Shown in pieces: positions 9,006-59,805 of a stretch of 64,000 nucleotides of DNA. Each line of letters opens with the position of its first letter. Position 1 is the stretch's first letter. The position numbers and the translations under genes are program-made. The stretch comes from Escherichia coli (lineage in GTDB: Bacteria > Pseudomonadota > Gammaproteobacteria > Enterobacterales > Enterobacteriaceae), in assembly GCF_030384885.1 (NCBI RefSeq), contig NZ_CP128613.1; one strand, 5' to 3'. Below the pieces are notes generated by a model. That model worked only from the letters and a program-made list of their open reading frames with translations, ran no database searches and was not told the origin of the DNA.

Positions 9006-9956
9006 TTACGTTTTAATAATATGGGTGCCCGTTTCGCCACGCAGCGCCGCGGGCAGGCATTCCGGCGTGGTGATAATCACTTCTTTACCGCCCTGTTCCA
9101 GGAACGTCAGGCTGGCGATGATTTTTGGCAACATGCTGCCTGGCGGGAAATGCCCTTCCTGCATATAGCGGGTCATGGTGGCAATATCCACCCGATCCAG
9201 CGCCTGCTGCTGCGGTTTGCCAAAATGAATACAGACTTTTTCCACGCCAGTGGTGATCACCAGAATGTCGGCGTGAATTTCACGGGCCAATAGCGCGGTA
9301 GAGAGATCTTTGTCGATAACCGCGTCCACGCTTTGGTAATCCCCCGCTTCACTGCACACCACCGGAATTCCACCGCCGCCCGCGCCAATTACCACAAAGT
9401 CTTGTTGGATCAGCGCCTTAATGGCAGGTGCTTCGACAATACGTTTCGGTTCCGGCGAGGCGACCACGCGGCGATAGCCGCGTCCGGCATCTTCAACAAA
9501 ACGCCAGTCAGGGTTAGTCTTTTGTAATTCGTCACGCTGGCTGTCACTAAAGAATGCGCCGATGGGCTTGGTGGGATGGGCAAACCCCGGATCGTTTTTA
9601 TCCACTTCCACCTGAGTCACCACAGTGACGGCTTTTTTCTCGCCGTGGCGCGCCAGCCGATTGTTCAGCGCCTGTTGGATCAAGTAGCCAATGCCGCCTT
9701 GCGTATCTGCCACACAGTTCGCCAGCGGCGTTAAGGGCAGCCCTTCGCGCTCGTGGGCAATCTCCGCACGGCGTAGATCCAGCCCAACCTGCGGCCCGTT
9801 GCCGTGGGTCAGCACAATGTCGTAATCGGAAGCCAGCATTTCCAGCACCGTATCGGCGACGGCCTTCACCGCCTCCGCCTGATGCTCAATCGACTGGCTG
9901 GCGTTATCTTTGATAATGCTGTTGCCACCAATGGCAACGACCACAAGCTCTTTCAT
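9006..9956 (-). CDS. yahI: Carbamate kinase-like protein
   Basis: The track ORF (9006..10073) carries an N-terminal extension overlapping yahG; the start at MKELVVVAIGGNS gives 316 aa, with a typical carbamate/amino-acid kinase N-terminus. Confidence 0.85.
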   Translation of the reverse strand: MKELVVVAIGGNSIIKDNASQSIEHQAEAVKAVADTVLEMLASDYDIVLTHGNGPQVGLDLRRAEIAHEREGLPLTPLANCVADTQGGIGYLIQQALNNRLARHGEKKAVTVVTQVEVDKNDPGFAHPTKPIGAFFSDSQRDELQKTNPDWRFVEDAGRGYRRVVASPEPKRIVEAPAIKALIQQDFVVIGAGGGGIPVVCSEAGDYQSVDAVIDKDLSTALLAREIHADILVITTGVEKVCIHFGKPQQQALDRVDIATMTRYMQEGHFPPGSMLPKIIASLTFLEQGGKEVIITTPECLPAALRGETGTHIIKT

Positions 9957-10051: not shown

Positions 10052-11470
10052 TCAGACGCCGTAACGTTCGCACCAGCCAAGAATGGCTTTTTCGAAGCAG
10101 GCGAATGGTGGATGCACAATGCCCGCGCCAATCATGCCGACGCCCGCATCTTTATGGGCAATGGCGGTGTTGATCACTGGCAGAATGCCACTGCTACCCA
10201 CGCGGGTGATGTCGATTGCCGACGGCACGCCCATAAATCCGAGCAGCGGAATGGTGACGTTCGGGTTTTCGCCGAGGGTGATTTCACGCATCTGGCGGGA
10301 GAAATCGATAGCCTCTTCCACCGTACCGCCCACCAGCGCGACGATAGCGGGTGCGGTCGCCATAGCAAATCCACCAATGCCGTAGGTTTCGGTGATGGCG
10401 CTGTCGCCAATATCCAACCCAGAATCTTCCGGCTTATAACCTGCAAACATCGGGCCGATCACCTGCTGCGCCGGACCGGTAAACCATTGCCCCGGCAGGC
10501 CGCTGACCCGCAGGCCGAACTCGACGCCGTTACGCGCCATCGTGGTCACCACGGTGCTGTATTCGATGCCGTGCGCCGCATCCATCGCCGCTTTACACAT
10601 CGCCATCCACGTCGGGCCGGAGAAGTAGTCGCTGCTGGCGACAAACTCAAACACTTCGCGCTGTTGCTCGACGGAATAACCCGCCTGAATAATCCCCGGC
10701 GTCAGCGCCTGAATCAGCAGCGTCGTCCCGGCGTTATTGCGGTTATGGCATTCATCGCCCATATGCAGCGCCTGCGCCAGCATCAAGCGCAGATCGATCT
10801 CGCCGATAATTTTCATCGCGTCACGCAGCATTGGCCCCTGCACATCGCGCATCCAGTTGAGGCGGTCAATCACGCTCTGATCGTTGGCACCCATACGCAA
10901 AATCTTCGCCATCTGCTCGCTCATATTGGTGTAAGCGATGTTGCCGTAGGTTTTGTTTTTCACGATGTGCATAAACATCGAGGCAGAGGTAACACCCGCC
11001 ATCGAACCCACGCAGTCATGCTCGTGGCACGGCGAGAAAGTGATCTCCCCGGAAGCCGCCAGTTCGGCCGCCTCGTCGAGATCTTTCGCCAGCCCTTCGA
11101 ACACCAGGGCCCCGGTGACCGCGCCTTTCATCGCGCCGCACATTTTTTCCCAGGTCACTGGCGGCCCGGCGTGAAGAATGGTTTTCGCCGTCATGCCTGG
11201 CACCACGTTAATCGCCTGATCAAAGCCAATCAGTACCGGATGCGACTGGATAATGCGTTCCAGCGCCTGCTGGTTAGCGGCGGCGATTTTGTCTGCCAGC
11301 GGTGAATCGGCAATGTTGTCCAGCGCCTGCACCACCTGCATATTGCCCTGCCCCGGCGGCGTCCAGTCGAGTTGGGTCACTTCTACATACTGCTTTTTCA
11401 GGTCATCGCTAAACATGGCGATGCCGACGTTAATAACGTTCAACGGTTGGCTAAACAGTGACTGGCTCAT
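10052..11470 (-). CDS. yahG: DUF1116-family protein, paralogue type of AllG/YlbE
   Basis: 472 aa; start overlaps the yahF stop by 1 nt (coupled translation). Confidence 0.85.
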   Translation of the reverse strand: MSQSLFSQPLNVINVGIAMFSDDLKKQYVEVTQLDWTPPGQGNMQVVQALDNIADSPLADKIAAANQQALERIIQSHPVLIGFDQAINVVPGMTAKTILHAGPPVTWEKMCGAMKGAVTGALVFEGLAKDLDEAAELAASGEITFSPCHEHDCVGSMAGVTSASMFMHIVKNKTYGNIAYTNMSEQMAKILRMGANDQSVIDRLNWMRDVQGPMLRDAMKIIGEIDLRLMLAQALHMGDECHNRNNAGTTLLIQALTPGIIQAGYSVEQQREVFEFVASSDYFSGPTWMAMCKAAMDAAHGIEYSTVVTTMARNGVEFGLRVSGLPGQWFTGPAQQVIGPMFAGYKPEDSGLDIGDSAITETYGIGGFAMATAPAIVALVGGTVEEAIDFSRQMREITLGENPNVTIPLLGFMGVPSAIDITRVGSSGILPVINTAIAHKDAGVGMIGAGIVHPPFACFEKAILGWCERYGV

Positions 11471-54269: not shown

Positions 54270-54331
54270 ATTTACCCTGTTTGTTTCATTATGTTGTACA
54301 CCTCTTCAGGAGTATTCATAAAACAAGATAA

Positions 54332-54500
54332 ATGTAAAGAACTGTATTGTTTTGTATAATGCAATGGTGACTAATCGCCAATTAATATAAGCACCATCAT
54401 TTCTCCATATTTTTATGTTAGAAGTGACAAGGAGAAATGTAATGTTTCTCTCAGAGAATATAAATCATTCCTTTTGCCCACCTTAATGGTGGGCTTTTTT
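54332..54500 (+). ncRNA. Candidate short transcription unit: promoter (perfect -10 TATAAT at ~54355), 14-codon ORF (MFLSENINHSFCPP, 54442..54486, SD AAGGAG) and intrinsic terminator (54476..54500)
   Basis: TATAAT preceded by TG; then an RBS-plus-mini-ORF whose stop sits inside a GC-rich hairpin (GCCCACC-TTAAT-GGTGGGC) followed by TTTTTT. Confidence 0.35.
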
Positions 54501-54865
54501 ATGCAAAACCTGAACACCCTGTGGTATTCCCCTGGCATTATCACTTTCGCGATTAACCAACAGCCAGACCAGCAAACACGCCACTACAGGCACAGCAAAA
54601 TCCATCAGGCTTGCCACACCCCATGCGTGCGGCTCAAAGCCGCCCCGCCATGGCATATTAATCCGCTTACCATTTTCGAACAGCTGATTGGTTTAGTCCG
54701 GTGTTTCCCTGCTTGCACTTAAAAATGAGCGGATGGGAAACTCTCGAAATGGTTCGTCGATATGCTCACCTTTCAGTCAGGCATTTCACCGCGCACGCGA
54801 GCAAAATCAAAGGCACATGAGGAGAATGTGGTTGACTTAAAAACGAGGAAACTTATTGATTTAAA

Positions 54866-54912
54866 TGGTGCCGATAATAGGAGTCGAACCTACGACCTTC
54901 GCATTACGAATT
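54866..54912 (-). tRNA. Pseudo-tRNA: 3' ~47 nt of a tRNA-Thr (thrW-like) = att core of an integrated element
   Basis: The minus strand reads …ATTCGTAATGCGAAGGTCGTAGGTTCGACTCCTATTATCGGCACCA (anticodon arm with CGU, T-arm GGTTCGACTCC, acceptor 3' strand + CCA); the 5' half (GCCGATA…) is absent, so this is a fragment. Confidence 0.75.
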
Positions 54913-56695: not shown

Positions 56696-57095
56696 AAATT
56701 AACCTTAAGTTGATAAGTTTTGTGGTGAATTTATAAAGCCTGAGGGATAAACATTTATAGTCTATAAGTTACTATTTATTTGAGATAGTAAGCCAATTTT
56801 ATTAGATGAAGAAACGTTCATAACCTCCTCAACTACGTTTCAATCGGCAACATCGGAGAAGTACACTTTGACAATATATAGCATATTGAAGCAGCTGTAA
56901 CTTAGAGCGCGTACACTCAAGATTTCCCGCTGCGGTGATGGCGGACGACTGCGTTTGATAACTCATTTCCCTCACCAACTATCGGACCTGTTCCTGATTG
57001 ATTATCACATTATAATGTGAGCAATGTCCGCTCCTAGCACATAGCAGTTCTAGAGACAATGGCGTAAAGTCATGGAGAATCGGTGGGAGGATATT

Positions 57096-57227
57096 CAGTT
57101 TCATTCATGCCGAAATACGGTAAAATCTATAACAGATAGAAATCATTCAATATTCGCACTATCAGAAGCTGGCCAGCCAACCGCGCACGATTTTGCATAC
57201 GACATGCTACGGTTTCATTTATCTCCG
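57096..57227 (+). repeat. Copy B of the ~130-bp imperfect direct repeat
   Basis: See copy A (52924..53053). Confidence 0.5.
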
Positions 57228-57814
57228 ACCGGAAACTTCTTATACAGTGTCGATACACCAACATCATAGATGATCTCCACCTTCTGGCGAGGAACGCCTG
57301 ATGCAATTAATCGCCCGGCCTGCGCCCTTTGTTCTGGTGTAAGTTTGGGACGACGTCCACCAATTCGTCCCTGTGCGCGAGCAACTTCCAGTCCAGCTTT
57401 TGTTCGTTCAACAATCAGTTCTCGTTCCATTTCAGCCAGGGCACCCATCACATGAAAGAAAAAACGCCCCATCGGTGTGCTGGTATCAATAGCATCCGTC
57501 AGGCTGCGAAAATTAACGCCACGTTCGCGCAACTCCTCAACCAGAATGACCAGATGGACAAGCGTGCCGGGACCGGGTTTATTCAGCGCTTCAATCAGGC
57601 GATCGCGCTGGTCAAAGCAGTCATCTCCCACCACATAAGCTGTGATGGACGGGCGGAAAGTGACTTTTCCCAGATCTTCGGTATAGGGCTTGTCGCGGTT
57701 CGGGTATTCATGTGTTTCCACACGGCGACCGGTTCCCGCACTTTCTTCTTCAACCTTAAACGGCACACCTCGAAATGACGCATCCTGAAGCCTGTCTTTC
57801 CACGTCATATACAC
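57215..57814 (-). pseudogene. Pin/Hin/Gin-family serine invertase C-terminal fragment fused to an unrelated N-terminus
   Basis: The C-terminal ~115 aa (…ELRERGVNFRSLTDAIDTSTPMGRFFFHVMGALAEMERELIVERT…RRPKLTPEQ…STLYKK) match the invertase core and HTH; the N-terminal ~85 aa show no resolvase catalytic-Ser region. Confidence 0.6.
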
Positions 57815-57821
57815 TCCGAAA

Positions 57822-57850
57822 ATAAAAAAGCCACCTATTAGAAGGTGGCC
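57822..57850 (-). terminator. Rho-independent terminator of the lipoprotein-like gene
   Basis: Stem GCCACCT / AGGTGGC followed on the minus strand by a T-tract (TTTTTATTTT). Confidence 0.6.
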
Positions 57851-57869
57851 TTGTAATGAATTTTATTAA

Positions 57870-58400
57870 TTAGCGAGTCAGAAACAACGAATCTTTATAC
57901 TTTTGCTGTTGTTCATTTAAATACTTAGCTGTTTCATCGCTGGCAAATGGAAATATTACCGTATTTTTAGGCATGGTAATTTCTTTTTTGTCCAGCGTCA
58001 GAGTAAACATAGGAACATACTGAGCAGAGTAACGCACCGCAGAAACGAGCTCTAGTTTAGACTCTTCAATAACACTTAAATTATCCAGGCTAACTTTCTC
58101 TTCATCTTTTTTCTTTGACGCATTTAAAGTTTTTATTACTTTATTTAATTTCTCCTGAAAATCCTCCTTAAAGTTTTCAGGATTGCCGTCGACAACAAGA
58201 ATCTGTTCACCCTGATTATCTGGAAAAATAATCTTTGCACTTATCAATTTATTTTCTTTATAAACATCACCAAGTTTTATGGCTCCTCCAGATAACTGAA
58301 TAATATGTTCATCTTTAAAGGAGATGTTGCCAGAGATTATGAGAGATGAAAAAATAGCCGCTGCTCCAAGAATTACACTTGCTGTGATATAGCCTTTCAT
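57870..58400 (-). CDS. Hypothetical signal-peptide/lipoprotein-like protein (AT-rich cargo)
   Basis: 176-aa ORF with an N-terminal hydrophobic segment (MKGYITASVILGAAAIFSSLIISG), Lys/Glu-rich, in visibly AT-rich DNA, with its own terminator. Confidence 0.6.
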   Translation of the reverse strand: MKGYITASVILGAAAIFSSLIISGNISFKDEHIIQLSGGAIKLGDVYKENKLISAKIIFPDNQGEQILVVDGNPENFKEDFQEKLNKVIKTLNASKKKDEEKVSLDNLSVIEESKLELVSAVRYSAQYVPMFTLTLDKKEITMPKNTVIFPFASDETAKYLNEQQQKYKDSLFLTR

Positions 58401-58491
58401 TTTTCGCCTATTAACATTTTTCTAAATGTGCATTAATTCTATCACTCTATTTATGACTTACAACCAGCAATACATGTGAGGGGAATCCTGG

Positions 58492-59623
58492 CTACCAAAA
58501 TCGGGTATAGCCAACATCGTGATTTATATCAATGCCACTGGAGCGTGTTTCCGTAACCCGCATACCTGGTGGCATATTTATAAATGATACCTTGATCTCA
58601 CCATCAACTTTTGGCGCGGTAGCTTTATTAATCATGAAGGGATTCGGGCCTGTGGCATCGGAGGCGTTGTTTGCCTGAGCCGGATCCACCGCCGGATAAG
58701 GAGTGTATCCCCGTGCCGGTATTCCCGTCTTCGATATTGTTGAAGGTGGCGCGATCGGTGTTCTGCACCATGTGCAACGGCACCCGGAACAGACGACAGA
58801 TTTCTTCAAGCTGAAACTTGCGGGTTTCCAGGAACTGGCTGTCCTCGGCGTTCAGCGCCATCGACTTCCAGTCCAGCCCCATCTCAAGGATCATCGGGCG
58901 GTGAGCATTACCAAGCCCGGTGTGACGCTCCTCAAAATCTTTCTTCAGGCGCTCATAAGCCTGATCCGACAGCGTCTGTTCTGTACGCAACACACCCGAC
59001 GTCACCGCGCCATTGCTGAACAGTCTGGCCCCGTGCTCTTCGGTCGCAGCTGCCAGCGATATTGCCTCACGGGCATAGGCGATGGGATTCAGTCCCACCA
59101 GACCGTCCAGCGTCAGCGTGCGCACATGCCAGATATCCTCCTGGCTCAGTACATCCGTGGAGCCATCCGGGAATGTGACCTGATAGACCGGCTCCCAGCT
59201 ACTGTTAAGCTTCGGTACCACACAGCCGGGATCGACGGGCAGCAGTTCAGCCACTTCGCCAAATGCTTTCACTTTGTAGGCGTAAAAGTTTCCCCGCAGG
59301 CACAGACAGGTGACCACCAGCTCCCAGAACTCCTGCGGCGTCATATAGCCATTGGGATGCGTGGAGATCAGCTTATGCAGACGTTCGCCAGTGGCTCTCT
59401 GCTTCAGGCTGCCGTTCAGGTGATACAGGTTGCAGGGCAACATCCCGACCGACTCCGCCAGCACCCTGACACAGGAAAAAACCGCCGTCAGTCGCATGGC
59501 CCGCTGGCTGCTGATCTGCTTTCCGGTATAGGTGTCGTAGGACAACCCGATGGCATCCGCCAGCTCTGCTGGCGTGGTCACCGGTGCGTCACTTTTTCGT
59601 TGAAATAATCCCGAAAAGAACAC
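58492..59623 (-). pseudogene. Phage portal protein (HK97 family), frameshifted and truncated
   Basis: ORF 58628..59623 (331 aa) is portal-like until ~58720, where it runs into a low-complexity tail; the continuation lies in another frame (58492..58809). Confidence 0.7.
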
Positions 59624-59805
59624 TATTTACCTCCGCCGACAGACAGCTGTGTACGATCGAGATATCGCGCCACCAGCCACGACCAGAACAGGCACAGCGC
59701 CCCGGCAACAACAAAACCCGCCGGGGGATAAATCAGCCAGGCACCATATGCCAGCAAAAGCGCACCCAGCACGCCCACCAGAGGCGCGAGAATCAGCATG
59801 ATCAT
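59623..59805 (-). CDS. Small hydrophobic protein between portal and terminase
   Basis: 60-aa ORF with two predicted TM helices; stop overlaps the portal start. Confidence 0.4.

Follow-up and report, generated by a model that had tools for sequence, protein, structure and literature searches.

A hybrid hub-gene/pin reading frame as the probable scar of a deletion in a decayed Escherichia coli prophage

The reading frame described here, which lies in a 64-kb stretch of Escherichia coli DNA analysed as a whole (the window), is a dead hybrid composed of the start of a phage baseplate-hub gene and the end of a Pin DNA-invertase gene, the two having come to be fused in frame by chance. It is very probably a pseudogene and the scar of one illegitimate-recombination deletion in a defective prophage of the SfV/e14 family at thrW. 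In the event that we propose, a deletion of ~7 kb would have joined hub codon 85 to pinE codon 73 via the microhomology CATC, and would have taken with it the catalytic N-terminal domain of the invertase, both crossover sites and all of the DNA that the invertase inverted.

Composition of the hybrid reading frame and its deletion junction

The longest open reading frame at this locus runs from 57215 to 57814 on the minus strand and comprises 199 aa when counted from a GTG at 57814. There is little doubt that translation truly starts at the ATG at 57808, since this codon is preceded by GGAG with a 5-nt spacer and the annotated intact homologues start with MTWKD at the equivalent codon, as the protein does here (Table 1). 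Pfam searches, with residues numbered from the GTG, placed DNA_circ_N (PF07157) at residues 9-87 (E 4e-30; profile positions 2-80 of 88), Resolvase (PF00239) at residues 85-150 only (E 2e-20; profile positions 79-144 of 145) and HTH_7 at residues 153-195 (E 4e-10), and comparison with PHROGs gave 'baseplate hub' (PHROG 184, E 6e-46) for residues 2-87 and 'DNA invertase' for residues 86-196. Among solved structures, residues 10-86 aligned to the Mu 'DNA circularization protein N' (PDB 9ki1), residues 79-194 to residues 67-181 of Mu Gin (3UJ3/4M6F; E ~1e-49) and residues 153-195 to the Hin DNA-binding domain (1HCR; E 3.5e-6).

The C-terminal half of the chimera descends from a Pin/Gin-type invertase. 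Its 112 residues (86-197) are 93% identical to residues 73-184 of intact PinE, identity to Mu Gin is ~75% over the E-helix and HTH, and both of these elements are retained in full. An earlier note on this DNA had recognised the last ~115 residues as Pin/Gin/Hin-like with a dimerisation helix and HTH, and the alignments to PinE, Mu Gin and Hin 1HCR bear this out. The same note had correctly judged the first ~85 residues to be unrelated to resolvases, and they can now be identified as the start of the prophage's own Mu-N-like hub gene (PF07157), with 84 of the 85 residues identical to an intact 442-aa DNA circularisation protein. The PF07157 domain itself is nearly complete, residues 1-85 covering 79 of the 88 profile positions, a likeness to the Mu gpN-type hub protein (9ki1). 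Unlike that protein, the chimera has the first fifth only: with 85 of 442 codons present, and with the baseplate genes P, V, gp46, J and YmfQ that follow in three intact prophage loci (L002, L006 and L007) deleted, it does not make up a full-length hub protein of ~440 aa.

Both halves are collinear with the intact prophage of E. coli strain USDA-ARS-USMARC-49610 (L002), which was used as the reference. By BLAST, window positions 56831-57556 correspond to L002 8815-9540 at 99.2% DNA identity and positions 57553-58729 to L002 16471-17647 at 99.7%, the two alignments overlapping by 4 bp, and 6,930 bp are missing from the window relative to L002 and 7,153 bp relative to L006. Read on the coding strand, the hub gene gives ...CTTGTCCATCCGACT, pinE ...ATGCGGCATCTGGTC and the window ...CTTGTCCATCTGGTC, and at the junction codon 85 of the hub gene (His) is followed in frame by codon 73 of PinE (Leu). 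The intact gene order in L002 is tape measure, a 176-aa hypothetical protein and the DNA circularisation protein (442 aa), then a baseplate block (a P-like baseplate assembly protein, V, gp46, J/gp47 and YmfQ) and the tail fibre, followed by two opposed tail-fibre-assembly genes with a gp53-like alternative C-terminal cassette, pinE (184 aa), an IS3 and a DUF6602 gene. The IS3 between pinE and the DUF6602 gene occurs only in USDA-ARS-USMARC-49610; it is lacking in two more intact strains, EH10-18-47 and HZ13, in which the genes are otherwise ordered alike. The deletion/fusion scar suspected in the earlier note is thus supported by collinear halves that lie 6,930 bp apart in the reference, by the 4-bp overlap between them and by these two further strains. 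Lost with the deletion are what remained of the hub gene, five baseplate genes and the tail-fibre gene, as well as pinE codons 1-72 and the invertible segment together with its two crossover sites. The further suggestion that the locus holds the remains of a tail-fibre inversion system agrees with the content of the deleted interval in intact relatives, where the tail fibre, the gp53-like cassette, the assembly genes and pix-type sites are found.

In a megablast search of 5,426 complete E. coli genomes the junction was spanned in none, and some strains carry both halves separately. The exact protein was found on three contigs that match the window over 9-17 kb at 99.99-100% identity, which makes the carriers of the chimera one lineage. 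Assemblies GCA_017755465.1 and GCA_036346665.1 belong to such carriers. No other protein cluster with the PF07157+PF00239 architecture appeared among the best 120 matches from a search of 5.8 billion clusters, an absence that is informative because a true relative would outscore ordinary invertases.

Table 1. Features of the window and mapped hub-gene deletion alleles. Positions are those of the window, except for the deletion alleles, for which the left and right ends are given in coordinates of the reverse complement of L006.
Feature	Start or left end	End or right end	Strand	Description
att repeat	54850	54911		62 bp identical to thrW (tRNA-Thr) 3' end + flank; distal prophage end
DUF6602 gene	55352	56695	-	447 aa, 36% GC; PD-(D/E)xK/NucC-like nuclease domain (PADLOC PD_DExK 2e-27, NucC 2e-16)
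Chimeric ORF	57215	57808	-	197 aa from ATG; GenBank HBA5946383.1, deposited as 'recombinase family protein'
pin'	57215	57553	-	PinE codons 73-184 + stop: end of catalytic domain, E-helix, HTH_7
Deletion junction	57553	57556		4-bp microhomology CATC (coding strand), common to both parent sequences
circ'	57554	57808	-	Codons 1-85 of Mu-N-like DNA-circularisation/baseplate-hub gene (PF07157); intact gene 442 codons
Intrinsic-terminator-like hairpin	57827	57852	-	10-bp stem then T run; between moron gene and chimera start
Moron-like ORF	57870	58400	-	176 aa, low GC; promoter-like site 58463-58436
TMP'	58495	58728	-	Last 78 codons of tail tape-measure gene
portal'	58728	59623	-	~First 299 codons of HK97-type portal gene; Pfam match to ORF residue 299
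Window allele	1851	9001		
P0002	1851	5937		Locus L009
P0006	1853	6756		Locus L010
P0005	1849	2527		Locus L011
P0132	1854	3224		Locus L133
P0134	1840	4438		Locus L134
P0135	1835	6485		Loci L135, L136

Catalytic residues, crossover sites and expression signals

Codons 1-72 of PinE are missing from the chimera and with them R7, S9 (Ser9), D64, R65 and R68, which we take to be the nucleophile and its catalytic partners by homology with Ser9 of Gin and with Ser10, D67, R68 and R71 of γδ resolvase. Only the last quarter of the catalytic domain is left; in γδ resolvase the N-terminal domain spans residues 1-101, the E-helix 102-137 and the DNA-binding domain 138-183 (PMC3575834). The absence of Ser9 along with the rest of this segment upholds the view taken in the earlier note that the product would have no catalytic activity. 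A catalytic domain with its serine in another frame or behind another start, the finding that the note had said would speak against its own reading, did not emerge when PinE residues 1-72 were compared by tblastn with the 64-kb window in all six frames (best match 21 aa, E 7.5), and tblastn of full-length PinE against the whole window revealed no missed catalytic domain.

The substrate of the enzyme has gone as well. L002 carries a 26-bp pix/gix-type site, TTCTCCCAAACCAACGTTTATGAAAA, at 9808-9833, 55 bp upstream of pinE. A weaker copy in inverted orientation, CTCTCGAAAACCTTGGAATAGGAGAA, is found within the tail-fibre gene at ~11423-11448 and is identical to the first site at 17 of 26 positions as read by eye. 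Both fall within the interval deleted from the window. The exact pix-like 26-mer of L002 was absent from the 64-kb window, a degenerate Gin/Hin/Pin 26-mer gave no match in it at <=2 mismatches, and no 12-bp half-site was found at 54-60 kb. Gix/hix-like inversion sites, which the earlier note had proposed to seek in the flanks, are therefore lacking in the window itself, whilst both are present in the deleted interval of the intact relative. In Gin and Hin systems a Fis-dependent recombinational enhancer lies in the 5' part of the invertase gene, and the enhancer of pinE was presumably lost with the deleted first 216 bp.

In the intact relatives pinE sits beside an invertible tail-fibre cassette, as it does in e14 and Mu. 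The chimera differs from PinE and the e14 P segment in being without codons 1-72, crossover sites and an invertible segment. Since it has neither the Ser9/Arg/Asp catalytic residues nor crossover sites nor an invertible segment, the chimera is not a working member of the Pin/Gin/Hin/Cin group. Its product, if made at all, would be unable to recombine DNA and would at most bind pix-type half-sites via its HTH.

Such a product would in any case have to be expressed from an unfavourable position. The terminator-like hairpin (Table 1) closes off the moron gene upstream and lies 19 bp in front of the chimera ATG, and no promoter-like site was found between the hairpin and this ATG, so that transcription of the chimera would need read-through within the late operon. 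Given this position behind a terminator in a late operon, expression is probably weak. The substitutions seen in the invertase half are also of interest here. Between pin' and the nearest intact pinE there are five nonsynonymous and no synonymous differences, whilst intact pinE genes differ from each other by six nonsynonymous and nine synonymous changes; on these small numbers a one-sided Fisher test gave p 0.03 with all five changes and 0.10 with the three that are clearly derived. These three (A129V, W148R and A165E) are unique to the chimera, with W148R and A165E located in the HTH region, and the other two are also found in phage vB_EcoM-689R6 and may be old polymorphisms. The chimera may be drifting neutrally.

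Several other pin genes, in defective e14/SfV-like prophages of E. coli, have decayed to truncated forms. In strain ST540 the gene is a 'recombinase family protein' pseudogene without its N-terminus, MDR_56 has a 144-bp N-terminal remnant from which the C-terminus is missing, and in HZ13 the stop codon has been lost. The chimera is unlike these in that its truncation is fused in frame to the start of another gene, which explains why pipelines annotate it as an intact 'recombinase family protein'. A further example of pin decay or rearrangement is P0007, an E. coli invertase fragment of 157 aa in which ~45 internal residues of the E-helix region are duplicated in tandem.

The surrounding prophage and its second scar

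Phages of the SfV/SfI/SfII type and e14 are lambdoid, have HK97-like heads and Mu-like contractile tails, and integrate at thrW or icd. The hub-gene half of the chimera shares 95-96% DNA identity with phages SfII, SfV and SfI, which integrate at thrW next to proA and share a morphogenesis module with e14 (PMC3636060). The prophage in L002 likewise abuts tRNA-Thr and proA. The window contains no intact tRNA, and its att repeat adjoins an integrase-gene remnant directly after yagU (54270-54911). The order terminase, portal, tape measure, hub, pin in the window prophage agrees with that in L002 and in L132, a near-complete e14-like prophage of strain MDR_56. The packaging and tail gene order and the thrW att repeat are shared with SfV, SfI, SfII and e14, from which the window element differs in being without ~15 kb of virion genes.

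Part of this loss is due to a second deletion, 1.2 kb from the first scar, whose junction at 58728/58729 fuses portal' to TMP'. The corresponding points are ~8.2 kb apart in L132, where the protease, capsid, connectors, sheath, tube and most of the tape measure lie between them. With ~15 kb of head, tail, baseplate and fibre genes lost in the two deletions, the window prophage cannot form particles. In a related strain the same prophage locus has decayed independently, through a Q-to-tape-measure fusion, and the pin pseudogenes of ST540, MDR_56 and HZ13 represent further independent losses there.

Two accessory genes have been kept. The 176-aa ORF that precedes the chimera had no match in Pfam or PADLOC, and we regard it as moron-like because it lies between the tape-measure and hub genes in the related thrW prophages L002, L006 and L007 and is absent from the e14-like L132. 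The DUF6602 gene is cargo at the prophage end; it fills a variable slot that follows pin and elsewhere holds a gene annotated McrA (phage vB_EcoM-689R6, L008) or a DUF262 protein (MDR_56). The DUF6602 gene possibly functions as a stand-alone defence gene. Beyond the prophage, paoABCD lies between yagU and the DUF6602 gene in EH10-18-47 and beside yagU in ST540, and is absent from the window, which indicates that chromosomal DNA bordering the prophage is likewise missing from the window lineage through loss. The window further contains ten Chi sites, GCTGGTGG (e.g. 59314-59321 and 59670-59677), every one of them on the minus strand, where shuffled sequence would give 1.65; this reflects the usual E. 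coli strand bias and is probably unremarkable.

The hub-gene breakpoint, competing explanations and implications

The position at which the hub gene was cut is not peculiar to the chimera. Deletion alleles were collected from the 90% protein cluster of the chimera, in the form of short hub products breaking at 85/86, and three more were obtained with an 85-aa query. In at least seven deletions that arose independently and come from different assemblies, the left end falls within the same 20 bp of the hub gene, at codons 80-86 (...AAACCCGGTCCCGGCACGCTTGTCCATCCG...; window 57553-57580). Five of the seven left ends lie within 6 bp of each other, all of the deletions run towards the tail-fibre/pin end, and the right ends are scattered over 6.5 kb (Table 1); the junctions show 2-11 bp of similarity and no foreign DNA. 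Among truncated hub alleles with novel tails, 7 of 12 end in codons 80-86; when ends were placed uniformly over codons 50-140, 0.6% of simulations had six or more in any 7-codon window.

Searches for a local cause were negative. The DNA fold of the 100 nt around the breakpoint was no more stable than that of shuffles (z 0.68), no Chi site occurs within 1.7 kb of it in the window, no IS sequence was found at the mapped deletion junctions, and the breakpoint sequences showed no resemblance to pix or att. In a survey of 120 IMG/VR loci in which the conserved 29-mer immediately upstream is present, none was deleted at this point, 119 being collinear through the gene and one diverging near codon 381, and among complete-genome records at least 1,084 of 1,104 were intact across the breakpoint, leaving at most 20 that were not; because deletion alleles are rare, both surveys are underpowered for a hotspot. 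A genuine hotspot, that is, a site-specific nick, break or replication pause in SfV/e14-like hub genes, or else selection for the N-terminal hub domain, is possible but on the whole doubtful, and the apparent clustering could be inflated by the clustering and retrieval of short proteins in protein databases.

The recurrence of this breakpoint is a hint of a site-directed event on the hub side, and bears on whether the deletion was made by a site-specific recombinase, either Pin or the prophage integrase, acting at a pseudo-site. Neither parental breakpoint is similar in sequence to the 26-bp pix site or to the core of the thrW att repeat, however, the right-hand ends share with the left end nothing but 2-11 bp of similarity, and one end of the deletion lies inside pin's own coding sequence, all of which makes such an origin very improbable. 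It is harder still to attribute the junction to misassembly. Prophage regions are repeated in E. coli genomes, in up to 7 places per genome, and could in principle be joined wrongly, but the identical junction and flanks were recovered from two GenBank assemblies and one independent SRA-run assembly, a k-mer assembler cannot be misled by a 4-bp overlap, and the flanks are collinear for kilobases on both sides; an artefact of this kind is extremely improbable. That the locus encodes a complete recombinase, its catalytic domain missed because the frame or start was wrongly chosen or a sequencing error shifted the frame, is practically out of the question: the tblastn search with PinE 1-72, empty for the whole window in six frames, refutes this reading. 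Upstream of the junction the DNA matches the hub gene of intact prophages at 99.7% identity, three data sets assembled separately agree on the junction, and no point in support of a complete recombinase was found.

The remaining alternative accepts the deletion and gives its product a role, as a domesticated DNA-binding protein that would act as a catalytically dead competitor at pix/gix sites, or through mixed dimers formed by the E-helix with other Pin-family invertases of the cell, and so lock or bias their invertible segments. The frame is open and preceded by a good Shine-Dalgarno sequence (GGAG, 5-nt spacer), the E-helix, HTH_7 and nearly all of the PF07157 domain are kept, so that a stable DNA-binding protein is conceivable, and the matching 52-residue domain of Hin has been solved as a separate chain (1HCR). 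The Pin enzymes of one cryptic prophage can moreover act in trans on another (PMC12529663), so that target sites may exist elsewhere in the genome, outside the window. Against this, the chimera is confined to one lineage, has no promoter of its own behind its terminator and has no target site in the window, its invertase half differs from the nearest intact pinE by nonsynonymous changes only (five, of which three are unique to it and two of those in the HTH region), and the retained piece of catalytic domain (PinE 73 to ~100) would be without the rest of its sheet. We consider such a function improbable, and return to the chimera as the scar of a single deletion.

Read in this manner, the chimera is an ordinary pseudogene, a deletion scar of a kind already known from, and routinely seen in, cryptic prophages, and its sequence is already public. 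It does not belong in counts of invertases or host-range switches, nor should it be taken to mark a mobile element as active. The Pin-type enzymes of cryptic prophages have recently been connected with phage defence, by way of the tail-fibre cassettes that they invert (PMC12529663), and in view of this link it is useful to know that in the window's Pin copy neither the enzyme activity nor its substrate survives. The window prophage documents the stepwise decay of an SfV/e14-type element, in which two clean deletions removed ~15 kb of virion genes and the DUF6602 nuclease-like gene and the moron were kept. The value of the result lies in the correction of an annotation and in the flagging of a recurrent breakpoint in the hub gene. 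If the hotspot were genuine, it would drive the loss of tail modules in one direction, as a fragile or targeted site that shapes prophage decay.
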